DNA of 64,000 nucleotides from Naegleria gruberi (Eukaryota), in assembly GCA_000004985.1 (NCBI GenBank), contig GG738892.1, one strand, 5' to 3'. The position numbers and the translations under genes were made by a program. Positions 14,690 to 54,086 of the stretch are shown piece after piece. Below the pieces are notes generated by a model, which was given only the letters and a program-made list of their open reading frames with translations, was not told the origin of the DNA and ran no database searches. Position 1 is the stretch's first letter. Every line of letters starts with the position of its first letter.

Positions 14690-14862
14690 NNNNNNNNNNN
14701 NNNNNNNNNNNNNNNNNNNNNNNNNNNNNNNNNNNNNNNGATTTTTGCTAATTGGGCAGAGCCTTAAAAATCATTGGAGTTTTGAGATTCGAAGCTTATT
14801 GGAAGTTAAATAGTAGCTCTTTACAATTCCTGAACAATTAGGAAAGTTTCTTTTTAAAAAAA

Positions 14863-39857: not shown

Positions 39858-42440
39858 TTACCAATTATCACCACAAGAACATTTTCCGTTTTCAAAATGA
39901 TGAAAACGTGAAGCATCTCTTACAATAATTTTGCAGTTTCTGACTTTTGAGATATACTTTGTAGCATTATGGCAATCTCCACAAACTCTCAAATTGTTAG
40001 CAATTCTAATAGTGGAACCTTTTGGTTGGTGAATAAAAGCATAGGCCATGGCCAATTTTTCTGAATGGCGACACAATAAATTCTTTTTCTCGTCGTCTGT
40101 AAATGTTCCGTGTTTAGTAACCCACCTTAAATCAGGCTCATAGCCAGCATCAATCATTTCCTGAGTTAGTTTCATTAACTCTTCTTCTATTTGTTTAATT
40201 TCAGGGTGGTTTTTGTCGTTACTAACAAAACTATATGTTTTTCCATTGATTTCAATAGTTGTTACTCCCGGAATCTTCTTTGCATTTTCTGATTTCATTT
40301 CTTTTTTGAGAAGTTCTACCTCAAGGTCCTCACCAAAGTACGAATAAATATTCGCTAGCAGGATATAATTGGACGAATCAGTTTTGTCTATTTCCTTTAA
40401 AATAGCAAAAGCCTTCCTTGCTCTCTCCAAATCATTATACTTTCTACATCCTCCTAAATAAGTACTCCACAATATTAATTCTTTGCTGTCACCAATTATT
40501 TTTTCTGCTTCTTCAAATAATCCAGAACGAACTAAACCATCCACCAAACAAGCTGTGTGCTTTATGGTTGGTTCGATATGATACTTGCTTGGCAGTTCTC
40601 TATAGAGATTAATGGATTTCTCAGGCATCATGTTGTGGCTGTATGCAGAAAGCATGTGAAGAAGAGTTTCTTCATTCGGTTCGAAGCCTTGCTCTATCAT
40701 CTTGTCGAATATTACTTCTGCCTGTTTGGCTCTCCCATTTTGAGCACATGTTGCGAGTACTACGTTCCATGTAATGATTGAAATTGGGTATTCTCTTCGC
40801 AATAAATCTACAAATAACTCAAAGGTTTTCTCTATTTCTCCCATTTTACCATAAAAGTTTAGGATAGTATTGTGTAGTTCAATTTCCTGAAAATGATATT
40901 TTTCAGCAATTTGATGTATTTCAATACCTTGCTTCAAAGATATACCATCAGAATATAAAGAAAGCATTGATATCAGTGAAATATAATCAAAATTTTTCAA
41001 TCTTAACATTTCTTCAAAAGTTTCTTTTGCCCTATCATAGATTTTGAAAACAGAGTAGAATTTAAGTATAGAATTACGCAATTCCAAACCACATTCAAAA
41101 AGTGGTGGCAGTAGTGCAATAATTTCTTCTCCTTCTTTTTTCAGCAATTTGTTTGTACACTCATTTAGCATTACAATAAATGAAACTTCGGAAGTCTGTT
41201 TAGTTGACATCATGTTGTAAAAGAGAGAGAAGGCTTCTGATATTCTCTCATCTTTGAAGAGGATTTTTAGTATCGTATTACACATTGGAGTATCGGGATT
41301 CTTGAAAGAGTAGAAGGTCTCAATAGATCTCTCAACCTCCCCTAAGTTTGCGTAAAATGAAATTACAGAGTTCATAACAATAGGATCTTTGCATTGGTTT
41401 TGTTCTATTAAACCACATATTTCCTTTCCTCTCTCAAATAGGTTGTTAGAAATACAAGCATTCAGCATAATAACGAATGTGCTATTTGATGGCTCGGCAA
41501 GTCTACGAAAATTTTCAAAAGCAAGATCAATTTTACCGCTTGAAAGAAGAGCTTGTAAGTAACAATTCCAAGTTATTATATTCTTTTGAGGAGAATTAGT
41601 AAACAACTCAATAGCTGTTTCATATTGCCCACATGTGGAATAAAAACTAATTAAACAAGTAATTAAAGTGATATCGTTAAGCAAATGTGGAAACAGTTCA
41701 ACAATAATTCGGTGAATAGATTTTCCTCCTTCTAAATATTTGATTTTAGAGCAAGATTTGATGAGCGTTGTAAACAAAATAGCATCAGGAGAAACACTCA
41801 TTTCCAACAAGATGTTCTTCACATCTTGCAAGCGATAATTCTCTATCAATTTTTCGGTTACTTTTGTTATATCTATTATTGTTGGTGCTTCCATTTGGTT
41901 GAATAGTCTAATTACCATTTCTAGATTTCCAGAAGTACAATACGAATTGAGCAAACAAGACTTGTTCTTTTCGCTCAATGGCACCAAATTGTTGTCCAGT
42001 GTTTCGTACCAAAACTGTGCCTTTTTTTTGAATTTGGGACTTGTGGTCATAGCGTTCAAGATCATGTTCCACAATGTCGGAGAAATTCTTTTAAATTCGT
42101 TTGGTGCAAGTGTGGAGAGGATTTGATTAACTTCTTCTAAATATTCATCTTGAATCCATTTCTCTTGATTAGTTCGCTTGCTAGCAAAATACATGGACGT
42201 TAGAGTATTAACTGAACGTTTTGAAGAAACCCTCTCAAATATTCTTTTACAATCATAAAAGTTAATTTCCTTCTTGTTCAACAAGAAGACAGCGTCAAAA
42301 TCATTAGGGTTTTTAAAATATTCTTGTAGTGCTGCGGTGGGGTTTTTTGGGTCAAATAAGTCTTTCACCTTTCCTAACTTTTTTAATGAGGTTGCAAAGT
42401 GGCGAAGTGTGAACATTTTTTTGATGAAGAACCCCACCAT
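39858..42440 (-). CDS. Pentatricopeptide-repeat protein with a C-terminal E/DYW-type cytidine-deaminase domain (organellar C-to-U RNA-editing-factor type).
   Basis: Single 860-aa ORF. About 15 degenerate 35-aa PPR/TPR-like helical repeats are followed by HSEKLAMAYAFI...IRIANNLRVCGDCHNATKYISKVRNCKIIVRDASRFHHFENGKCSCGDNW. That is the DYW-domain HxE...CxxCH zinc-binding deaminase signature, with terminal DNW in place of DYW. The N-terminus is basic and presequence-like. Confidence 0.8.
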   Translation of the reverse strand: MVGFFIKKMFTLRHFATSLKKLGKVKDLFDPKNPTAALQEYFKNPNDFDAVFLLNKKEINFYDCKRIFERVSSKRSVNTLTSMYFASKRTNQEKWIQDEYLEEVNQILSTLAPNEFKRISPTLWNMILNAMTTSPKFKKKAQFWYETLDNNLVPLSEKNKSCLLNSYCTSGNLEMVIRLFNQMEAPTIIDITKVTEKLIENYRLQDVKNILLEMSVSPDAILFTTLIKSCSKIKYLEGGKSIHRIIVELFPHLLNDITLITCLISFYSTCGQYETAIELFTNSPQKNIITWNCYLQALLSSGKIDLAFENFRRLAEPSNSTFVIMLNACISNNLFERGKEICGLIEQNQCKDPIVMNSVISFYANLGEVERSIETFYSFKNPDTPMCNTILKILFKDERISEAFSLFYNMMSTKQTSEVSFIVMLNECTNKLLKKEGEEIIALLPPLFECGLELRNSILKFYSVFKIYDRAKETFEEMLRLKNFDYISLISMLSLYSDGISLKQGIEIHQIAEKYHFQEIELHNTILNFYGKMGEIEKTFELFVDLLRREYPISIITWNVVLATCAQNGRAKQAEVIFDKMIEQGFEPNEETLLHMLSAYSHNMMPEKSINLYRELPSKYHIEPTIKHTACLVDGLVRSGLFEEAEKIIGDSKELILWSTYLGGCRKYNDLERARKAFAILKEIDKTDSSNYILLANIYSYFGEDLEVELLKKEMKSENAKKIPGVTTIEINGKTYSFVSNDKNHPEIKQIEEELMKLTQEMIDAGYEPDLRWVTKHGTFTDDEKKNLLCRHSEKLAMAYAFIHQPKGSTIRIANNLRVCGDCHNATKYISKVRNCKIIVRDASRFHHFENGKCSCGDNW

Positions 42441-42465
42441 TGGAAGATCCTAACATATTTTGAAA

Positions 42466-45400
42466 ATGTTTGTGAAATTATTATCTTGGGGTTTCCTGAT
42501 AGTAATTAGTCTGGTTGGCATGATTGTGCTGTGTTGCTTTTCAGCAATTTATACATTCATCTTGCCAATCAATGATCTCAAAACCTCTCTTCCATTTCAA
42601 TGTGAAGATTCACTCTCTACGATGGTGACATTCTCTGTTACTTTATTCAGAATTCTATTCATGTTTGTAATACCACCACAATACTTATACATCAGATCAA
42701 TAGTACACATGATTCTCTCATTGGTTGTGGCTGTTGTGCAAATTTATACATTATCCTATTTCAGAAGATTTGAGAATACTATCCATTTTGCAAGTACACT
42801 TTGCTCAGTTGGTGCTAGCATTGGAGTGTTGGTATCATCATTGGTGAATTCTAAAATGGAAGACATGATGGGAATTGCAATGTTTTTCGGAATAGTTCTT
42901 GGATTGTCACTTATCTTCTCCATTATTGGTGTATTGATTGGAGAAATTTACACTAGATCAATCATGAGAAGAATACGGTCAATAATGAAATCTCCATCTG
43001 CTGTTGTTGGCCATATGGCTAGTAGGAATTCCTATTCTCGACAAGACTCTTATTCTACAGAGAAAGAATCGGCCGAAATCTATCTTTCATTAGAAAATTC
43101 TCTAAGACAACTGAAATTGTTTTTGAGATTTTGCTCTTCCGCACAAGATATTGAATTGGTGGTTTCATTTATTAAGGGAATTTCCACAAAGAAACAGTTT
43201 AATGATCCCAAGTTGATAACAACTTCAGCCATAATGATCGGACACAGATGGAATGATACAAATAGGTATAATTTTTCAGTTTATCTATTAAAGAAAGCCT
43301 CTCGTTTAGGAGGAAATTATTGGGAAACTCTCAATATGCATTATAGAGTGAAACAATTTGAAAGAGATCAAAGTAATTTGTCATTTCAAGGTCGGTACAC
43401 ATTAGAGATTAAGAATGCAATTTCTATTCTTGAAAAGAAACAAGAGGAGCTCAAAATTGCTCATAAAGCATTCTGGAAAGAGCTTACTATTGAAAGGCCA
43501 AATACATCAAAGCTAGCCAATTTAAACTCTCTTTCAGCAAAATTAACTAGGCATTGTGATGAAAATTTCGGAATCTTGATGAAGAATTTCCCACATGATA
43601 AAACTGTTATACGGCACTATGCTAAATATGTGGAATCCATCAAGTTGGACAAAAACTTATCAAGTCAACTGTTTGAAGAAGCGACAGTTCTAGAAGATAA
43701 GGAATCAAATCATTACAAACAACCAAACTTGAAACGAAATTTAAGGTCAAGTTTGAGAATCTACCCTGTTGATAGAAAGGCCTTCAGAGAAGATGATGAT
43801 GAAATTCTCACAAACAAACAAGATTTTGAAGGAATAGAAAATCTCTCAGAGAACAAAAAGGAAGAAGCTTTGCGAAATGCTCTCAGCTCTCCTTACCAAT
43901 CCAAAATAAGAACAATTGCTTATGCTTTCATGTTCTCCTTATGTATTGCTACGGTGGTTGTTTGTTTTGCATTAACTAATTATTATCAAACATTATTATC
44001 AAAATATCCTCTTATTAAGGATTCATGTTATATCCAGAGTACTTATGGTGGTTTATTTAGAAATTTGAGAATGGCTCAGATAGTTTGGGAGTTTTATGAT
44101 GATTTAAAAACTCCATTTCCATTGGTTAATACAACAGAATACGATAATATACAATTGTTCAACAGCACCTTTATGGAAAAGATTGAACTAAAGAGAGAAG
44201 CGTTAAGAAAGTTGGAGGAGAACTCCAATTCAGGCGTATTTACACCTGGAATGTTTACTGATTTTACAATAGAAGATAAGCTTATCAATATTCCACTCCC
44301 TAACGATACAGGAATAAGGAAAGAGTTTACTAACATTTTTAAAAGATATGCTTCTTCAAGAGAAGTAAACTCCGTCATTTTGGAACACATTGAAAATTCA
44401 GTTATGAATGGAAAGATGAAATTTTATGAAGTTGTAACGAGGTAAGAAGAATTCAAATTTATAATATTAATATTGTAGTTATGAGTTTATGTATATTTAT
44501 CAAAATAGAAGAACAGGAGCTGATGCTTTCTTAGCATTTTGTAAATCGATGCAAGTTAGCCAAAAGACCTTTATCGATGAAACTAGAAATCTCTTACTCA
44601 ATATTGTTATTGGCATTGGTATTTCTGTACTGGGAATTTTTTTGACATTCTTAATAATATCAAGAATTGAAATGGAGATATTTTCTATTGTACTCTCCAT
44701 GTTCAAAAAATTGCCAAAAGACATTCCTGGTTTCATTTATCAGGATTTGGAAAAGCAATCCAAACATGATGAGATGAAAAAATTTGACAAACAGTTAATG
44801 CCTAATGAAAAGAATAAGACCTTAATTGTTGGATTAATCATATGCGTCTTGATAATAGTTTCCATCGTTTTGTTTTATTATGAATTTTCAGATAATACTG
44901 ACAAAGCAGAGCAATGTTCAACATTGATTTAGCCAGTTACATGGTGAGAGTTTCTAATAGAATGACTCAAAGATTGAATGAAATATTTTCATATAAGGTA
45001 CTACCTCTTGGAAAAGCTGTTAATCATCCAGCTGTTGTCACTAGTGCACTTGCTGATCAATACAGATTAGAAAATAGAGATCACGTGCAAATATTACATT
45101 CAAGTTACAATCAAATAGTATATGGATCAAATAATACTGACAAGCTAATAGGAATTTTTGATGAAATAGATGAAATGTTAATTGGTTCAAATTGTAATAC
45201 TACTGAGCACATGAATAATTGTACAAGCCTCATTGATTTAATCACGTTTTTCTGTGTTAAAGCTGCAGAAGCCACAGAGAACTTATTCAATCCTCTAAAT
45301 GCTAAGAAAACCATTGAAAAATTTTATGATGTTTTGTATCTTTACAACTTGAATGACTTTGTTACAACTAGAATCAATCACTTTTTAGATTTGATAGTAA

Positions 45401-47518
45401 AATATACTGAAAGCCCAAATAGAACTCTCTCAATAATTGTATTATGCATAACTATAATTTCTATGCTAGTACTGGGATGGTACTTCTATAGATGCATAAC
45501 AGAGTTTGACAATGAGATGACTATCCTTAGATCCTTCCTTGCATATGTCCCATCAGAGTGGATAGAATCTAATGAAGAGTTTAAAAACTTTGTATTTTAC
45601 AAAACTATTCCCATGTGGAATTTCAAGAAATCAAATTCTGCAGTTAAAGGTTCAGATGCAGTTAGTAATATTCTACAATCAATGATTGATGGAGCTTTCA
45701 TAGCAAATGAAAAATCAGAAATCCTATTATTCAACAATGCAGCTCAAAAGATGTTCTCCAAGAACCCGTCTGAAGTTATGGGATTACCTATGCAACATTT
45801 GTTTGACTCATCTCATGAAACTGCGTTGAAACAATTCATAGATAACAGAAACAAGTATTTGGAATCACAAGGAGGTGAGCTATATGAAGTAGATTGTGTA
45901 AGAAAAAATCAAACAAGATTCCCAGCTTCCCTCAATCTGTTTGTTACCAGGAATGAGGATAAAAAGACAATTATTGTTGGATTTTTCAAAGATATAACTA
46001 TGGAGAAGAAACAGAATAATCTTCTCAATGAAGAAAAGAAGAATTCAGATATATTACTTAGGAATATCCTTCCAGAAGCAGTTGCCATCAAATTGAAATC
46101 AGGCGAAACTGAAATTGCAGAAAAATTCCAAGATATTACTTGTTTCTTTTCGGATATCTGTACACAAACTCCCTCCGCTTTTTTAACGGGATCCCAACTT
46201 TGATGACCCACAACAGAATAGTTACTTAGTGATTCATCATAATTTAACTTGTATGGTGTGCGCCTATATGTTAACTATCATCAGAATTGTTTTCAGCAGT
46301 TTATGTGTAGTAGGTCGATTGAAAACCTCAATTGAGTGAAAACATATATGAAAATTTCAAAATCCAATAAAACCAGAACCAGTATATGCCAAGCTCCAAA
46401 TATCGAGATATGTACTCAAAACATCTTGAAATATAACCACAATCATTGGTTTGTTGATATTTATTGTCTGGACAAAGATATGCAGGGTTAAAGTTGAGCT
46501 ATTTTTCAAACTCAACTCAGTTGAAGTGGAACTGAAATGGAAGGTTGTTTCGGACTGAGTACCAAATAAGCAAATAAAGTCAAACAACAAATATTTAAAA
46601 AATTTAAGTTTTATTATTGTTTCTACAACCAAAACAATATTGGTTGTAGTTGTATGTTCAGGAACACAATATTCACCAATGGGAATGTCTTCCTCCTCCA
46701 TGAGAACCATAACAGGTCATTCAAAGAGAACTGTGATGAGAGCAGAAGTGGCAACAACCATGTGAACGGAAGATAGCTTCCTGTATTGCTTGCAAGTCTT
46801 ATCTGGTAGTGTGGTGGGGCATGATGAAGAGAAAGGACCNNNNNNNNNNNNNNNNNNNNNNNNNNNNNNNNNNNNNNNNNNNNNNNNNNACAGAGATTTA
46901 TCATTTGGAAAAGATTAAAACAATTGGGGATGCGTAAGTTGTCTTTTAACAAATTGAGTTCACTAACTGCAATACAAAGATATTTTTGTGTGGGAGGTCT
47001 TCATAATTATCCTCAATCAGATCACCCAGAACGTTCTCTTCGTTTCTCCATTGATACTCTCTCTGTAATTCACAAATATAACGAAGAAAACAATAAGAAG
47101 GTCAATATTAGAATTGGTTTAAATACTGGAAGTGTTATTGCTGGAGTTTTGGGTAAGAAAAAGTTTGCTTACGTAAGTTGAACTTCCTTTCAATATTATT
47201 GATTTCAACAAACAGGATTTATGGGGAGATACTATTAATTTTGCCTCAAGAATGGAATCAACTTCATTACCTGGAAGAATTCATATTTCCAGATCTACCT
47301 ATGAAAGAGTTTATGATTTAGGAATGGAATTTGAAGAAAGAATGGTGGAAGTGAAAGGAAAAGGACTATGTAAAACATATCTTTTGAAGGATAAGTATCA
47401 TGTCAATCCAATTGATACTGAAGTTATTGAAGCAACAAAGTTTGATGAGGAAATGAATGAAATCACTGAAGGTACATCATTGGTTGGTGATGGATTGGTC
47501 AGGCATACAGGTGAATAA
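42466..47518 (+). CDS. Receptor-type class III adenylyl/guanylyl cyclase: N-terminal multi-TM region, large middle domain, TM, PAS domain, C-terminal cyclase catalytic domain. The model is incomplete, with one unresolved frame break (~44920) and an N-gap (46840..46889) inside the catalytic domain.
   Basis: Segments: 42466..44438; a GTAAGA intron to TTGTAG (44478) or AAAATAG (44508); 44479..~44932, which is then out of frame with 44914..46203 (the PAS-like region ILQSMIDGAFIANEKSEILLFNNAAQKMF...VGFFKDITMEKK and the start of the cyclase, FFSDI). After the gap come 46890..46933 (TEIYHLEKIKTIGDA), 46980..47172 (YFCVGGLHNYPQ...IRIGLNTGSVIAGVLGKKKFAY) and 47216..47518 (DLWGDTINFASRMESTSLPGRIHISRSTYERV...), with GTAAGT introns at 46934..46979 and 47173..47215. 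These are the canonical class III cyclase metal-binding and substrate motifs. Confidence 0.6.
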
Positions 47519-47526
47519 AGAAATAA

Positions 47527-47695
47527 CTTTAGGGATTATACTTTGTTCCAAAGAAACCCAAATTTTGATCTCACTCTTTCTGTACTAATTCCATCTCTAA
47601 TATCCTCAAATGATGAGCAGCAGAACATGTTGGAAATAATTTCTGACAGTGTTGTGAATAGGACTAATTTATCAACACTAGCTGATATGTTGGAN
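47527..47695 (+). pseudogene. Fragment duplicated from the 3' part of the downstream gene (48485..48705) with an internal ~80-bp deletion. It is followed by an N-gap and then a second copy of the cyclase 3' end (47745..47833, matching 47430..47518).
   Basis: Direct sequence identity: GGGATTATACTTTGTTCCAAAGAAACCCAAATT...GATCTCACTCTTTCTGTACTAATTCCATCTCTAATATCCTCAAATGATGAGCAGCAGAACATGTTGGAAATAATTTCTGACAGTGTTGTGAATAGG is shared. TTGAAGCAACAAAAGTTTGATGAGGAAATGAATGAAATCACTGAAGGTACATCATTGG... is repeated on both sides of the gap. Confidence 0.6.
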
Positions 47696-47920
47696 NNNNN
47701 NNNNNNNNNNNNNNNNNNNNNNNNNNNNNNNNNNNNNNNNNNNNTTGAAGCAACAAAAGTTTGATGAGGAAATGAATGAAATCACTGAAGGTACATCATT
47801 GGTTGGTGATGGATTGGTCAGGCATACAGGTGAATGAAGAAATAACTAATAATATTCGATTCATTGATTTAGAGAATTGAGATTATGTAGTAGATATGTG
47901 AAAAATCTAATAGAAAAAAA

Positions 47921-48863
47921 ATGAAACGAGTAAATTCTTCTAATGATGAAGATTCTTCACCTCCAAACAAAATAACTAAATTTTGTGAACAAGTGGAAAG
48001 TTTATCCTGTTTAGAAATTGCAACTCTGATTAAACATTGCCACAAGGTTCGCGGAAGAATAATTCTTGATTTATTATCGAATATTCCGGACGAAATTATT
48101 CTTCATATTTTAATGTATTTGGATCCATTGGAAAGAATTGCACAAGGACCACGAAATTGTTGTAAAACTTGGAATGGGAGTATTCACAATTTAACTGTTT
48201 TGTGGAAACTTGCATTGGAACATTTAAAAATTGAAAATGATGAATTGGATGAGGATGATATTGAATTTTTAAAGATTAGATCCCTAAATAGACAACCAAA
48301 AGCAGTACAGTTTGATTATTGTTCTGATGATGAATCTTACAACTTTTCGAAAAAAGATCTCGTTCACCATTCAAAAGATTTCAATATCATTACCAAAAAC
48401 CCACGTATAGAAACTTCAAATAACAAAACTTACCACAATATTAGGGAATATATTTCGCATTACTATTTGGATACTGAGTTGATTGAGGGATTATACTTTG
48501 TTCCAAAGAAACCCAAATTCTTTAAATTTGAAATTTCAGCAAGTGGCAATTCTCGTTGGACTGAATATTCAACTGATGATCCAACAACGTATGATTTTGA
48601 TCTCACTCTTTCTGTACTAATTCCATCTCTAATATCCTCAAATGATGAGCAGCAGAACATGTTGGAAATAATTTCTGACAGTGTTGTGAATAGGTATCCT
48701 CAATATTCACAACACTAGCTGAATATGTTGGAGAATCCAATAATGGTGTTAGATGGTTTACTAAATGGTTATCAAATTTTGGTTTTTTACCAGATGATTT
48801 CGATGCAGAGAGTGAATTGGAGGGTTTAGTTGATGATGTGAGTGAAGAGGAAGATGACGAATA
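47921..48863 (+). CDS. F-box-like protein with an acidic C-terminus. There is a frame discontinuity near 48700 (the ORF stops at 48718; the coding frame continues 48726..48863).
   Basis: F-box-like LSNIPDEIILHILMYLDPLERI. After the in-frame TAG at 48716..48718, a +1 frame encodes EYVGESNNGVRWFTKWLSNFGFLPDDFDAESELEGLVDDVSEEEDDE* with good coding character. The paralogous fragment at 47640..47695 differs here by +5 and +1 indels, so the local frameshift may be real or an error. Confidence 0.5.
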
Positions 48864-48886: not shown

Positions 48887-51800
48887 TTAAAGCATCATTA
48901 AGAATGCAGCCAAAATTGAAATAATCAACAAGGAACAATTAATCATGAAAGATCCTGAAACAGTGGCAAAATTGACTGGTGGTAATGAAATGGTAACCTT
49001 TTCAATCACATTTCCTGAAGCATCTGCAGTTGAAATACTTCCAAATGAAGCTGAAGTGGAGGCAGTATCTGGATTTTTAACAGAACCTAAAGCAATAGAA
49101 ACCTTTCCAACAGAAACTTGAGAGCTCACAGCTCCTGAGATGGTGTTGCCATTGACATTAACATTACTAATAGTAATTTCACTTCCACTAGCATCTGTAA
49201 CAGTAATTGTTGAAGCCATAATTGCTCTCTTTTGAACAATTGAGACAACATATCCATTTGGTAAACTGAGGGTAATTGAGCCACCCTTTGGAATTGGACT
49301 AGCAATCTTGACAACAATTGTAATGGATCCAACACCTCCTGGAACTCTATTAGAACCACCTGATGAACCAGCAGTAGTAGAAACTTCAATAGAGACAGCA
49401 GAAGATTCTTGAGCAGCAGTTGAGCCACTAGCTGGAATGACAGCAGTCAAATAGGCGGTATAAGTTGTCACTGGTGAGAGACCAGATGAAAGAACATAGC
49501 TAGTACCAGAAATAGATGAAACTGAAGCAACTTGAGTTCCAACAGCATCTCTAATTACCAAAGAATAAGTTATTGAGCTTGCGGCAGTTACTGAAGCAGT
49601 CCATGAGAAAGTGGCACCTGCAGCAGTGACATCTGAAACCTTCAAGGCAGTTGGTGGAGCAACAGAACTTGGTGAAGGACCATCATATGCAAACAATCCC
49701 TTCAAGGTAATAGTTCCAGCAGAAATGGAATAAGAAGCATCAGCCCAATTCTTGGCAGTATTAGAAACTGTATTGACATTTGGGAAACAAATCTTGAAAT
49801 CATTTGTGGACTTTTTGGTTCTTCCCATAGAATAATCCATAGCATCTCCAATTTGTCTATAGAATGTTTCATTATTATTATTGACACATCCAGCATTACT
49901 ATTACCCAAGAAGAGAATATCCAACAAGTTGGCGTTGAGATTATTATCACTCAATGGATTAGTACACTTAATGTTATCTCCACAATCAGCATCTGATGAA
50001 CATGTTTGAGCATTCAATAATTGCTTACAGAGATTACCTTCACAGAAGAGGTAGAAGTTTGGAATGCCTTCTGGATTGTTTGTACAACGAGAGGTGTGGA
50101 CGTGGATTTTAATTTGACTGTCCAATAATGAGAAGAGATTAGTATAGGTGAATCTACAACCTTTGGTTTCGTAATCTGAATAGGTACAAGTGGATGGCAT
50201 TTGAACGTTCAAAGTACTCAATGAAAGGAGTGAAATAATTCTTTGCATTGGTGAAATAGTCCAAGAACCAGCAGAGAAAGTATTAGAATTGGAAGAAAGT
50301 AAAGCCAACCAAGCTTTAGCATTGTAAGGTTGAACCAAAACTCTTCTCAATTCACTTGTCCATCCATTATTGCATGAAAAGATGGAATTAACAACAGTTT
50401 CGTTTCGATTGTGGTAGATCCGTAATTAATATTTGGTGAGTAAATTGTCATCAAATTTGGACCAAATTGCAAAACTCCATTACAATCATATTTCAACATG
50501 AGAGTATACTTGTTTGTATCATAAGATGGGAACAATGGATCAACAGGAACTGAGATTGAGGCAGTTCTCTTTTCAGAAGCAACAATATTTGAACCATCAG
50601 CTAAAATACCATCCCATGAAGAGACACTTGACAAGGAAATGGTACATGTACGATTATATGTTGTGGTATTACAACTTGGACCAATATAATCATAATAACA
50701 CATACAGACACCTTCAGTGGAGGTGGTAGCAGCATCTTCAAAGTTTGGAGTGGCAAAAACACAAGAACCATGTCCAGAACAGACATCTGGGCTAGTAGCA
50801 GCAATACCATTACAAGTGACAGGTTTTTCACAGAGCTCACCAGTAAATTTGGTTCCAGTACATTGACATTTACCAACAACACCTGAGGATGCGACACATA
50901 CACCACCATTTTGACAACTAGGACAACTGACTGAATATTCACATTGAGCTCCAGTATATCCTTTAGTACATGAACAATAACTCAATGGATTATAAGCAAT
51001 AGTGTGACAAGAACCACGTCCATTACAAACTGATGGATTAGTAGAATTGTAAGAACCACACATAATTGCTTGAGAACACAAAGAACCAGCATAACCATAA
51101 TTACATTTACAGACACCAATGTTACCAGCAACGAGGGAACAATAACCATTTCCACTACAAACAGAGGCAGATGTGGAATCAACACCACCACAATAATAAA
51201 CAGAATCTTGGACTGATGAAACAGTTCTCTTTGCTTGTGGAATGGCAATTTCAGTAACAACAGAAGTAGGAGCAGCAACATCAGCACTCATTGGAACTAC
51301 AGCAGTTTGTTGAGTCTCTTGAGATTCGGATAAAGTTCTGGAAACTACCTTTGCAGTACAAGTAGCTTGTACATTAGCTCCAGGACTCAAAATTGGTGCC
51401 AACTTTGGACCACACATCTTGATTGAAGTATAGGTCTTTGTTGAAGTTTGACTCCAATGATTGGCCAACATTGTCTTCATCAATGAATCAATTAATTGTT
51501 CTGGAGATTTACAAGTTTGGAATTGATTATAAATTCCAGCAAAAAAGAAACCAAAACCAAATTGGAAATTTGAGCCATATCCAGCATTATTTGGAACATC
51601 CCAACAAGTTAAACTATTTCCACCACAATCAGAATCTTGTTGACAAGGATAACCAATCTTATCACAATCATCACCTTTACAATGAATTGCAATATATGGT
51701 AAACGTTGTGGAATTGAAAAAGTTGCACGATTTCCACTTGTTTCAGATGGACAAGAAGCCAAAGCAACTTGAATTTGAGTACTTCCAAGAGCAAGTGAGA

Positions 51801-52307
51801 ATAAACATGGAGAACCATTCGAAACATCATTCAAATTACAACTTGAAATTTGTGCGAAATATTTAGAATTGGACATTTGCATCCAATTATTAGGAGCATC
51901 AGATTGTGCAGGACATGAAGTATCAAGAGCAGCTCTTCCCTTCATGGAATTCCATAAAAATCCTTCGACACCTGGAACATATTGTCTTTGGAAGTTTCGT
52001 TCAGTAATTGATGGACAACGACATTGATTAACTCTTAATCTTGCTTGTTCGATGGCATAATTAGTAGCAGAATAGGCCAAACCAATGTTAATGTTGGATT
52101 CTAGAAGAGATCCTTTCAAAAGACGCATGTAACCATTGCCTGATTAGTGACAGATGCAAATTAATATAAAAATATTAAACATGACATGTTAATAAAAATT
52201 AAAGTCTACCAAAACCTACATGAGAGTGAAATAATTTCACGTTGATGAGATGAACACACCAATGTCACCACAAGAATGACAAATGTCAAGCAATGTAATA
52301 ATTTCAT
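48887..52307 (-). CDS. Large Cys-rich (EGF-like repeat) and Ser/Thr/Ala-rich cell-surface protein with an N-terminal signal peptide, an internally duplicated Cys-rich domain and a GPI-anchor-like C-terminus. complement(join(48887..50350?,50347?..52139,52241..52307)), with a 1-nt frame break near 50350.
   Basis: Exon 1 is MKLLHCLTFVILVVTLVCSSHQ (signal peptide). A GTGAAA..AATCAG intron (52140..52240, phase 1) joins it to ...NGYMRLLKGSLLES. Multiple EGF-like CxxxxGxCxCxxGYxGxxC units lie in 50600..51100. The downstream ORF (48887..50350) is in the -1 frame but repeats the upstream domain (CKGDDCDKIGYPCQQDSDCGGNSLTC vs CEGNLCKQLLNAQTCSSDADCGDNIKC). Then come S/T/A/V-rich repeats and a C-terminal GSFMINCSLLIISILAAFLMML. 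Confidence 0.6.
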
Positions 52308-52538: not shown

Positions 52539-54086
52539 ATGAAAGGTGCATACCACAGTGTGTTGTTGAAGCATTCAGGTTCATCCTTCCACATGATTGT
52601 TGACACTGAAAAAATGATGTTGACACTTCCTGCTAAATATCCAATAATTAGTTTTTGTGTTTGTTTGGTGATTTTGTTGGCGAGTTGTGGATTGAGTGTT
52701 TGGAAATTAAAAATTGATTCGGATCCTTTTAAACTTTTAACACATTCACATTCGAATGCCAAGTTGAAACGAGACGAAATGAATTTATTGTTTCCTAAAT
52801 ATAATATATGAGAGCAGTGAGCATATTTAAGGGATCCTCTAGANNNNNNNNNNNNNNNNNNNNNNNNNNNNNNNNNNNNNNNNNNNNNNNNNNNNNNNNN
52901 NNNNNNNNNNNNNNNNNNNNNNNNNNNNNNNNNNNNNNNNNNNNNNNNNNNNNNNNNNNNNNNNNNNNNNNNNNNNNNNNNNNNNNNNNNNNNNNNNNNN
53001 NNNNNNNNNNNNNNNNNNNNNNNNNNNNNNNNNNNNNNNNNNNNNNNNNNNNNNNNNNNNNNNNNNNNNNNNNNNNNNNNNNNNNNNNNNNNNNNNNNNN
53101 NNNNNNNNNNNNNNNNNNNNNNNNNNNNNNNNNNNNNNNNNNNNNNNNNNNNNNNNNNNNNNNNNNNNNNNNNNNNNNNNNNNNNNNNNNNNNNNNNNNN
53201 NNNNNNNNNNNNNNNNNNNNNNNNNNNNNNNNNNNNNNNNNNNNNNNNNNNNNNNNNNNNNNNNNNNNNNNNNNNNNNNNNNNNNNNNNNNNNNNNNNNN
53301 NNNNNNNNNNNNNNNNNNNNNNNNNNNNNNNNNNNNNNNNNNNNNNNNNNNNNNNNNNNNNNNNNNNNNNNNNNNNNNNNNNNNNNNNNNNNNNNNNNNN
53401 NNNNNNNNNNNNNNNNNNNNNNNNNNNNNNNNNNNNNNNNNNNNNNNNNNNNNNNNNNNNNNNNNNNNNNNNNNNNNNNNNNNNNNNNNNNNNNNNNNNN
53501 NNNNNNNNNNNNNNNNNNNNNNNNNNNNNNNNNNNNNNNNNNNNNNNNNNNNNNNNNNNNNNNNNNNNNNNNNNNNNNNNNNNNNNNNNNNNNNNNNNNN
53601 NNNNNNNNNNNNNNNNNNNNNNNNNNNNNNNNNNNNNNNNNNNNNNNNNNNNNNNNNNNNNNNNNNNNNNNNNNNNNNNNNNNNNNNNNNNNNNNNNNNN
53701 NNNNNNNNNNNNNNNNNNNNNNNNNNNNNNNNNNNNNNNNNNNNNNNNNNNNNNNNNNNNNNNNNNNNNNNNNNNNNNNNNNNNNNNNNNNNNNNNNNNN
53801 NNNNNNNNNNNNNNNNNNNNNNNNNNNNNNNNNNNNNNNNNNNNNNNNNNNNNNNNNNNNNNNNNNNNNNNNNNACCTCTTGACTATTCCTTTATTGATT
53901 TGTTCCTTGTCAACTGTGGTCAGCATTCTGCCTCTTGCATTTCATGATATCAAGATTGTGAAAAAGTACTTTTTCGATATTATTATTTTAGGACAAGGTA
54001 TTTTATTGTTTAACGTATTGGTAATATTCCCTGCAATATTATCATTAATTGAAAAGTTGAGATCTAGGAAAATTCCAGCTCTTTAA
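52539..54086 (+). CDS. Patched/Dispatched/RND-superfamily-like multi-pass transporter, copy 1. The N-terminal part and the C-terminal part are separated by a 1032-N gap at 52843..53874.
   Basis: The N-terminus has TM1 (ISFCVCLVILLASCGLSVW) followed by KLKIDSDPFKLLTHSHSNAKLKRDEMNLLFPKY, resembling the post-TM1 IETDPxxLW loop-start of RND/SSD proteins. After the gap, 53877..54086 encodes LLTIPLLICSLSTVVSILPLAFHDIKIVKKYFFDIIILGQGILLFNVLVIFPAILSLIEKLRSRK, identical to the end of copy 2. Confidence 0.45.

Follow-up and report, generated by a model that had tools for sequence, protein, structure and literature searches.

DYW-type PPR proteins are not a new finding in Naegleria gruberi, the gene family having been published for this same organism in 2010; these proteins were reportedly described by Knoop & Rüdinger (FEBS Lett 584:4287), and editing in N. 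gruberi is said to have been shown by Rüdinger et al. in 2011 (RNA 17:2058). The organism possesses 10–11 DYW-type PPR proteins vis-à-vis two mitochondrial sites of verified C-to-U editing (Fu et al. 2014, PMC4202320), a disproportion that makes orphans of most of its DYW proteins, and its DYW clade, in which a second metal site is present, represents a lineage-specific expansion (Iyer et al. 2011, PMC3239186). All four papers agree with the opinion, expressed in the first-pass annotation of the locus described here, that the protein belongs to a plant-like type which, plants apart, occurs in few lineages.

The gene under consideration is located within a window (the whole 64-kb stretch of DNA that was analysed) that is a subtelomeric stretch of an N. 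gruberi nuclear scaffold; telomere-type (TTTGGG)n repeats begin at 62605, ~20 kb from the PPR-DYW/cyclase locus, and a second scaffold carries a copy of the left neighbour with 95% identity. Nothing was found when the entire window was scanned for Rfam families and tRNAs, and the low-GC “islands” seen at 52–54 kb and 58–62 kb are artefacts of N runs. The uninterrupted ORF (39858..42440, minus strand), given in the first-pass annotation as coding for an 860-aa protein, is indeed an intact, previously annotated N. gruberi gene, its product being 100% identical, with 100% coverage, to XP_002673292.1 (EFC40548.1, D2VRZ1, NAEGRDRAFT_51788); in tblastn, residues 1–860 map to 42440–39861 at 100%. The gene encodes one of the known plant-type PLS-class PPR-E1-E2-DYW proteins of the organism; its accession numbers were not found in the supplements of Fu et al. 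2014. Its closest non-self relatives are land-plant DYW PPRs, with 25–35% identity over the whole protein. The features of the locus are collected in Table 1.

Table 1. Positions of the features of the PPR-DYW/cyclase locus within the window
Feature	Position	Strand	Basis or remark
PPR-DYW CDS, complete, intronless, stop codon included	39858..42440	-	860-aa ORF, uninterrupted
N-terminal 120 aa of the PPR-DYW protein, without PPR motifs	42081..42440	-	
PPR array, ~16 motifs, aa 121-654	40479..42080	-	consensus scoring and Pfam
E1 motif (aa 655-688) and E2 motif (aa 689-722)	40275..40478	-	Pfam, consensus scoring, alignment to 9kfx
DYW cytidine-deaminase domain (predicted), aa 723-860	39861..40274	-	Pfam DYW_deaminase, PDB homologues
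PG box	40227-40271	-	PGVTTIEINGKTYSF
HSEKLA, aa 792-797 (zinc ligand His and catalytic Glu)	40050-40067	-	
CGDCH, aa 820-824	39969-39983	-	
HHF, aa 847-849	39894-39902	-	
CSCGDNW, aa 854-860	39861-39881	-	
Junction, 55 nt, putative proximal boundary of the duplicated cyclase block	42441..42495	.	
Membrane PAS/cyclase gene copy, 5'-truncated	42496..47515	+	tblastn of P0088 and P0024; Pfam
Cyclase frameshift, 4-nt deletion near 44912	44908..44932	+	GAGCAATG vs paralogue AEQAMF (expected GAGCAAGCAATG)
Second cyclase disruption	46166..46889	+	paralogue similarity ends after FFSD, no GT donor

The C-terminus had been read in the first-pass annotation as a DYW deaminase signature (HSEKLA...CGDCH...CSCGDNW), and a search against PPR, E and DYW models had been proposed. 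The three motifs are indeed present in the C-terminus and the matches to all these models are far beyond chance, the Pfam profiles recognized being DYW_deaminase (5.3e-46, profile positions 1–93/93), E_motif (3.8e-30 at aa 668–730, full profile, 1–63/63), Eplus_motif (2.2e-14 at aa 735–762, profile 1–28/28), PPR_2 (1.7e-36), PPR (2.2e-33), PPR_1 (1.3e-11) and PPR_3. A phmmer search of the PDB yielded the synthetic PPR-DYW protein 9kfx (6.7e-64), the DYW domain of OTP86 (7o4e, 2e-35) and DWY1 (7w86, 2e-31); in the end-to-end alignment of the C-terminal region with these three structures the PG box, HxE, CxxCH, HHF and CxC are all conserved, the deaminase-site elements (PG box, HSEKLA and CGDCH) aligning with the equivalent motifs of 9kfx and 7o4e. 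Also present and aligned are HHF and CSC, corresponding to the two His and the C-terminal CxC by which the second metal site is defined (Iyer et al. 2011, PMC3239186). The terminal tripeptide is DNW, a variant of DYW, and the aligned solved OTP86 domain terminates in DSW. Taken with the annotated identity, the domain models and the solved-structure homologues support the designation of the product as a putative PPR editing factor of the DYW type whose deaminase signature is intact.

The portion preceding the deaminase domain is likewise that of the PLS-class DYW subgroup, consisting of a tandem array of P/L/S-type PPR motifs followed by E1 and E2 (E and E+). The motifs, 29–37 aa long, are arranged in the order (P)-S-(P)-L-S-P-L-S-P-L-S-L-S-P2-L2-S2, the array ending with a clear P2-L2-S2 triplet. 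Their register was established by ungapped BLOSUM62 scores against consensus motifs of the P1/L1/S1/P2/L2/S2 types, and motifs 1, 3 and 9, the three weak ones, which are N-terminal, have low scores. The nucleotide specificity, whose prediction had been advocated when the gene was first noticed, was derived from the 5th and last residues of the motifs according to the PPR code; the predicted RNA target is close to 5'-C(A)G(G)AC-n-UC-n-U-n-CY-nnnnn-C*-3', a sequence that is tentative in view of the consensus motifs, the ungapped scoring and the three weak N-terminal motifs on which the register depends.

The first 30 residues (MVGFFIKKMFTLRHFATSLKKLGKVKDLF) contain seven K/R and two D/E, the first acidic residue being found at position 27, so that, from composition alone, this stretch of ~30 aa would look like a mitochondrial presequence. 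The start context of Met1 is TTCCAATG, and that of a second Met, located at aa 9 (42416..42414), is A-rich (AAAAAAATG). A homology search with aa 1–256, aimed at finding orthologues in other Naegleria that could distinguish Met1 from Met9, returned 0 matches, the self-match also being missing.

By analogy with the land-plant editing factors, the protein would be imported into mitochondria by virtue of its basic N-terminal presequence, its PPR array would bind a specific stretch of RNA, each motif being paired with one nucleotide and S2 lying opposite position −4, and its DYW domain, acting as a zinc-dependent cytidine deaminase, would convert to U the C located four nucleotides downstream of the bound stretch. 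It is highly probable that the locus as a whole consists of a known plant-type PPR-DYW gene, to which editing is ascribed by this analogy, and of an adjoining cyclase start that represents a duplication breakpoint.

An unlikely alternative concerning the first part of this reading is that the protein, while real, serves mitochondrial RNA metabolism in a different way (endonucleolytic cleavage, stabilisation or splicing, for instance) or has a role outside the organelle. The DYW proteins outnumber the two known sites, other roles have been raised explicitly (Fu et al. 2014, PMC4202320), and note has been taken of endoRNase activity claimed for some DYW domains (Iyer et al. 2011, PMC3239186). 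Against this stands the retention of all the residue classes for deamination, i.e., HxE, CxxC, the second zinc site and the PG box, which would be needless for a purely RNA-binding role; furthermore, sites edited in mitochondrial RNA that is unannotated or non-coding may so far have escaped detection.

The gene located on the plus strand beyond the 5' end of the PPR-DYW gene had been recognized in the first-pass annotation as a cyclase, a designation that holds since PAS and Guanylate_cyc domains, along with TPR_TmcB, are found by Pfam further downstream. Its start had been placed at the ATG at 42466, and the distance of 25 bp (42441–42465) separating this triplet from the minus-strand ATG (42440..42438) is correct; on the other hand, 42466 does not stand as the start of the gene. 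The annotated model, XP_002673218.1 (P0024), maps at 100% from 42709, 268 bp from the PPR-DYW ATG, and comparison of paralogue proteins with the DNA of the window by tblastn indicates that similarity begins abruptly at nt 42496. From this nucleotide onward the window copy is 98.5–99.3% identical to two paralogues, the full-length XP_002677157.1 (P0088, NAEGRDRAFT_79715, 1644 aa), located on a 427-kb scaffold and of which it represents aa 237–1644, and XP_002668531.1 (P0023), located on a 10-kb contig. These two proteins have 235–236 additional N-terminal residues that are encoded nowhere in the 64-kb window, and the region that is missing from the window copy is conserved in ~60 family members, the homologues aligning from aa ~20–125 of P0023 onward. 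Native status should be granted neither to the start at 42466 nor to the annotated ATG at 42709.

Loss of the 5' end is accompanied by further damage. Compared with NAEGRDRAFT_79715, the window copy is 98.5% identical over aa 237–885 and agrees with it in exon 1/intron 1 structure (intron 1 at 44442–44508) as well as in its TmcB-TPR, PAS and cyclase domains, but lacks aa 1–236, carries a 4-nt frameshift deletion and has part of the catalytic domain replaced by unrelated sequence and a gap. At the frameshift one GCAA unit is lost and a premature TAG is encountered at 44930–44932, the annotated model bypassing this stretch with an ad hoc intron. The second disruption, where homology is lost at 46165 beside an assembly gap, comprises ~675 unrelated nucleotides and a gap of 50 N, with the loss of ~30 catalytic-domain codons (MVGFTQLSSGMNPSELIKMLGAIVNAFDDL); the domain is devoid of its first third and the Guanylate_cyc profile is matched only at positions 60–123 and 136–182 of 183. 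Judged as a class III adenylate/guanylate cyclase of the Naegleria PAS-cyclase family, whose members bear an N-terminal multi-pass membrane domain, the window copy has neither a complete catalytic domain nor the family-typical N-terminal membrane region and uninterrupted frame, and, given the frameshift and the internal disruption besides the loss of the first 236 codons, it is probably a pseudogene. The comparison shows a truncated, frameshifted duplicate of NAEGRDRAFT_79715 lying at a subtelomeric duplication boundary.

Of the two explanations originally offered for the 25-bp gap, a mis-assigned N-terminus is therefore favored, on the plus-strand side, by the truncated and frameshifted nature of the duplicate, whereas an ultra-compact bidirectional promoter is without support. 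A duplication breakpoint, or possibly an assembly problem, accounts best for the close spacing, and the short ATG-to-ATG gap says nothing about promoter architecture in Naegleria. A recently duplicated cyclase segment would have lost its first 236 codons, with 42466 marking the proximal breakpoint, and a shared mini-promoter would be unnecessary. Three other arrangements were considered. A gene nested in the cyclase, or a long cyclase intron with exon 1 upstream of the PPR-DYW gene, is rejected because the missing 235–236 aa are not found by tblastn in the 64 kb and because there is no AG acceptor at 42494–42495; the former of these reasons also rules out a simple insertion of the PPR-DYW gene into the cyclase. 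It is also unlikely that P0023 is the missing 5' end of the window gene, given that the window copy, P0023 and P0088 all differ in their overlap. GC content did not separate the junction from coding sequence.

Both the junction at 42441–42495 and the frameshift could be assembly or sequencing errors. That the junction, and perhaps the frameshift too, are artefacts of a chimeric contig, the real upstream neighbour of the PPR-DYW gene being different, is improbable: the cyclase is a multi-copy gene, with at least four near-identical copies, full or partial, spread over four scaffolds or contigs, and hence is prone to mis-joins, the locus is subtelomeric and the cyclase region contains two N gaps and locally duplicated contig ends, 47427–47528 being repeated across a gap at 47745–47847, but the junction is situated inside one gap-free contig (14740 to 46839) and not at a scaffold gap. 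Furthermore, there is one difference in the overlap between the window and P0088 and one between P0023 and P0088, and there are two between the window and P0023; with each of the three distinguishable from the other two, that of the window represents a sequence in its own right. Near telomeres truncated duplicates are often encountered, which also speaks against an artefact.

It has been considered, as a quite doubtful extension, that the intact, single-copy PPR-DYW gene may have lost its original upstream region when the truncated cyclase duplicate was copied beside it, may be transcribed from within ex-coding cyclase sequence, with only 55 nt of unique DNA in between, and may edit an undetected C of mitochondrial or other RNA. 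Were this so, the protein would be one of ~8–9 orphan Naegleria DYW proteins and the PPR-code motif would make its site directly searchable.

It is very improbable that both ATGs (42440 and 42466) are genuine and drive divergent transcription from an ultra-compact bidirectional promoter lying within the 5' ends, the cyclase being a functional, N-terminally short isoform, for, even if the ATG at 42466 has an A-rich context (GAAAATG) and opens a 659-codon ORF running directly into a hydrophobic helix, it is preceded, 12 nt upstream, by an in-frame stop (42451–42453), its first 10 codons (MFVKLLSWGF, 42466–42495) have no counterpart in the paralogues, the ORF begins partway through a conserved membrane domain of several helices, at least two strongly hydrophobic helices and some conserved motifs being absent from it, this ATG is not the one chosen in the reference annotation, and the gene downstream carries the frameshift and the disrupted catalytic domain.

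The importance of these results is mostly confined to annotation quality. The PPR-DYW gene is a textbook case of plant-type RNA-editing machinery in a protist, present in the literature since 2010; what is added is a motif-by-motif map with a predicted RNA target that can be matched to the N. gruberi mitochondrial transcriptome and, as to the cyclase, the recognition of model XP_002673218.1 as an apparently truncated, frameshifted duplicate.

When compared with the N. gruberi DYW-type PPR set of Knoop & Rüdinger 2010, the protein, which comes from the same organism and the same annotated protein set and has PLS repeats with E/E+/DYW, presents no structural difference. With the land-plant PLS-class DYW factors (Arabidopsis OTP86, i.e., At3g63370, PDB 7o4e; DWY1, 7w86; the Physcomitrium DYW PPRs) and with synthetic 9kfx it shares the domain order (PLS array, P2-L2-S2, E1, E2, DYW) and the same catalytic and zinc motifs, its E1-E2-DYW region aligning over the full length with 9kfx (E = 6.7e-64). 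Unlike the land-plant factors, it is hosted by a heterolobosean amoeboflagellate, its repeat order is irregular, P being skipped in an S-L-S run and the P motifs being short (31–34 aa), its S2 is 29 aa long instead of 32 and its terminal tripeptide is DNW. According to the literature, the MORF/RIP partners of the flowering-plant factors are confined to seed plants, so that the Naegleria protein presumably acts alone, like the moss factors. The same excess of factors is found in another heterolobosean, Acrasis kona, in which ~12 DYW PPRs stand against two mitochondrial C-to-U sites that have been verified; in the published phylogeny the Acrasis proteins group with those of Physarum and the Naegleria proteins with those of rotifers, suggesting independent acquisitions (Fu et al. 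2014, PMC4202320).

The minus-strand reading frame, annotated in N. gruberi as a "predicted protein" on a 342,059-bp scaffold (XP_002673292.1, EFC40548.1, UniProt D2VRZ1, NAEGRDRAFT_51788; identity 100%, coverage 100%), encodes a DYW-type PPR protein with an intact deaminase signature, as the first-pass annotation had read from its C-terminal motifs, all of which are found. Profile searches of the 860-aa translation against PPR, E and DYW models (Pfam) yielded significant matches, with DYW_deaminase at 5.3e-46 (aa 766-860, all 93 profile positions being covered), E_motif at 3.8e-30, Eplus_motif at 2.2e-14, PPR_2 at 1.7e-36, PPR at 2.2e-33 and PPR_1 at 1.3e-11. The reading frame, its motifs and the spacing of its ATG from that of its neighbour are correct and well past chance expectation, and no annotated copy of the protein at ≥90% identity was found. 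Together with the 100% matches of both neighbouring genes to the annotated flanking genes, this identity shows the window to be nuclear DNA of N. gruberi strain NEG-M.

The identification is correct and solid, yet already published. N. gruberi is credited with 10-11 DYW-type PPR proteins (Fu et al. PMC4202320, citing Knoop & Rüdinger 2010), and at 5e-46 for the DYW domain an annotated protein should not have escaped the 2010 survey. Two mitochondrial C-to-U sites have been verified in this organism (Rüdinger et al. 2011, via PMC4202320); the proteins outnumber the sites, so that other roles are possible (Fu et al., PMC4202320), and non-plant DYW genes are still taken as presumed horizontal transfers (2026 survey, PMC13386178). 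In Naegleria the DYW clade has undergone a lineage-specific expansion and retains the second metal site (Iyer et al. 2011, PMC3239186). The earlier framing of a plant-type DYW editing protein in a protist is right according to the published work on N. gruberi. The useful yield consists of the PPR motif map with its predicted RNA target and of a correction to the model of the adjacent cyclase gene.

The PPR ATG (42440..42438, minus strand) and the plus-strand ATG at 42466 are indeed separated by 25 nt, a distance that had been read either as an ultra-compact bidirectional promoter or as the sign of a mis-assigned N-terminus. The frame opening at 42466 does belong to a cyclase gene, carrying TmcB-type TPR, PAS and Guanylate_cyc domains (Pfam), but ATG 42466 is not its native start. 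The reference model P0024 (XP_002673218.1, 1225 aa) maps at 100% identity from 42709, 268 bp from the PPR ATG, while the similarity to the full-length paralogue P0088 (98.5% amino acid identity through exon 1) starts abruptly at exactly nt 42496, corresponding to its residue 237, and that to a second paralogue, P0023 (287/289 identical), starts at the same nucleotide. No part of the 64-kb window encodes the 235-236 residues with which the paralogues begin ahead of this point; those residues belong to a conserved multi-helix membrane region, the alignment of most of the 65 family members retrieved by an exhaustive search beginning at P0023 positions ~20-125, and hydropathy analysis indicates that the window ORF opens at the third strong hydrophobic helix. 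Furthermore, an in-frame stop (42451-42453) lies upstream of ATG 42466, and the ten codons at 42466-42495 (MFVKLLSWGF) have no counterpart in any of the paralogues compared. This evidence identifies the 55 nt at 42441-42495 as the junction between the upstream edge of the PPR gene and a duplicated cyclase segment. The short spacing does not point to a compact bidirectional promoter; of the two alternatives that of a mis-assigned N-terminus is supported, a truncated duplicate being the underlying reason.

The cyclase copy is damaged internally as well. Relative to P0088, the frame switches at 44908-44917, where GAGCAATG replaces the AEQAMF encoded by the paralogue, implying the loss of one GCAA unit, and a premature TAG follows at 44930-44932; the annotated model masks this frameshift by splicing out 44621-44922. 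Similarity is lost a second time after FFSD (46165), without a GT donor, and gives way to unrelated DNA (~675 nt) and a gap of 50 N; ~30 catalytic-domain codons are absent, and only positions 60-123 and 136-182 of the 183 of the Guanylate_cyc profile are represented. Truncated, frameshifted and interrupted, this copy is either a probable pseudogene or badly assembled. At least four near-identical copies of the PAS/cyclase gene, full or partial, are present in N. gruberi. The end of P0023 (aa 524) almost coincides with the start of another paralogue, P0089 (P0088 aa 517), which suggests an additional copy whose two parts were placed by the assembly on different sequences, the 10-kb contig and the 160-kb scaffold.

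Since the breakpoint at 42441-42495 falls within a gap-free contig (14740 to 46839), a real duplication boundary is favoured over an assembly mis-join, such as the multi-copy cyclase could have caused. The gene to the left of the PPR gene, XP_002673217.1, likewise has a 95.4% identical copy elsewhere, which makes up residues 1-609 of XP_002679776.1 (602-kb scaffold); the latter model runs on past the cadherin-like part into an unrelated TPR protein and probably represents a fusion of two genes. At the window end, ~20 kb from the PPR gene, two (TTTGGG)n arrays (62605-63138 and 63708-64000; ~90 and 49 copies, 97-99% match) flank a 50-N gap and ~520 nt of other sequence, their G-rich strand running 5' to 3' toward the window end, the orientation seen at genuine chromosome termini; they look like telomere repeats at the end of an N. 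gruberi chromosome, and the locus would then be subtelomeric. The simplest reading is that recent segmental duplications have produced a subtelomeric mosaic, in which the single-copy PPR gene lies between duplicated segments.

The window holds seven N runs (3068 N altogether); the sharp GC dips at 52-54 kb and 58-62 kb, at first sight AT-rich DNA, are artefacts of these runs. Contig ends are duplicated on both sides of the gap at 47695-47744: 102 nt of the cyclase 3' end (47427-47528) recur at 47745-47847 with 98% identity and look like unmerged contig ends. In addition, ~75 nt (47528-47600) are found again at 48483-48632 within an F-box protein ORF (47921-48718), so that the two ORFs have the peptide FDLTLSVLIPSLISSNDEQQNMLEIISDSVVNR in common. 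Farther on, two neighbouring minus-strand ORFs may constitute a single gene; the product of the shorter, Ser/Thr/Ala-rich, cysteine-containing and with a hydrophobic C-terminus, is probably a surface protein.

Coordinates of the PPR-DYW gene, its protein landmarks, neighbouring features and cyclase paralogues
Feature	Position	Strand	Remarks
PPR-DYW ORF	39858..42440	minus	860 codons, uninterrupted
E1	aa 655-688 of PPR-DYW protein		consensus scoring
E2	aa 689-722 of PPR-DYW protein		consensus scoring
DYW domain	aa 723-860 of PPR-DYW protein		consensus scoring
PG box PGVTTIEINGKTYSF	aa 724-738 of PPR-DYW protein
HSEKLA	aa 792-797 of PPR-DYW protein
CGDCH	aa 820-824 of PPR-DYW protein
HHF	aa 847-849 of PPR-DYW protein
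CSCGDNW	aa 854-860 of PPR-DYW protein
D2VRZ0 / XP_002673217.1	37196-39079	plus	cadherin-like secreted protein, 628 aa; 100% match; Pfam Cadherin_3
D2VRZ2, cyclase model	from 42709	plus	100% match to annotated flanking gene
Two long ORFs	48887-52128	minus	487 and 593 aa
N runs (scaffold gaps)	14690-14739, 46840-46889, 47695-47744, 52844-53874, 55339-55388, 59309-61095, 63139-63188
P0088 (XP_002677157.1)	427,589-bp scaffold		near-identical cyclase copy, 1644 aa
P0023 (XP_002668531.1)	10,292-bp contig		near-identical cyclase copy
P0089 (XP_002669345.1)	160,583-bp scaffold		near-identical cyclase copy

Scoring of the PPR-DYW protein against P1/L1/S1/P2/L2/S2/E1/E2 consensus motifs after the scheme of Cheng et al. 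2016 provisionally places ~16 PPR motifs at aa 121-654, arranged as (P)-S-(P)-L-S-P-L-S-P-L-S-L-S-P2-L2-S2. With 7 K/R and 2 D/E among its first 30 residues, the protein has a basic N-terminus compatible with a mitochondrial presequence, and the start context of the second in-frame Met, at codon 9 (AAAAAAATG), is richer in A than that of Met1 (TTCCAATG).

In plant DYW-type factors the PLS array contacts one nucleotide of RNA per motif, S2 facing the nucleotide at -4 relative to the edited C, and the DYW domain acts as a cytidine deaminase that depends on zinc. By analogy, the Naegleria array would bind its RNA one motif per nucleotide with S2 at -4, and its DYW domain would deaminate the target C in a zinc-dependent manner. 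Under the PPR code reportedly due to Barkan 2012, Yagi 2013 and Takenaka 2013, ND specifies U, NS C, NN C/U, TD G and TN A. The 5th and last residues of each motif, to which this code was applied, are NS, ST, TD, TD(L), TN, NS, VD(L) and ND for motifs 1-8 and NS, IG(L), ND, IE(L), NS, NN, LT(L2) and AE(S2) for motifs 9-16, giving a predicted target of roughly 5'-C(A)G(G)AC-n-UC-n-U-n-CY-nnnnn-C*-3'.

The C-terminal 205 residues align with solved structures without large gaps and with all catalytic and zinc-binding motifs in register, the matches being to a synthetic PPR-DYW protein (9kfx, E=6.7e-64), the DYW domain of Arabidopsis OTP86 (7o4e, E=2e-35) and DWY1 (7w86, E=2e-31). The terminal tripeptide is DNW in the Naegleria protein and DSW in the aligned OTP86 domain, so that the departure from DYW falls within the variation tolerated by the family.
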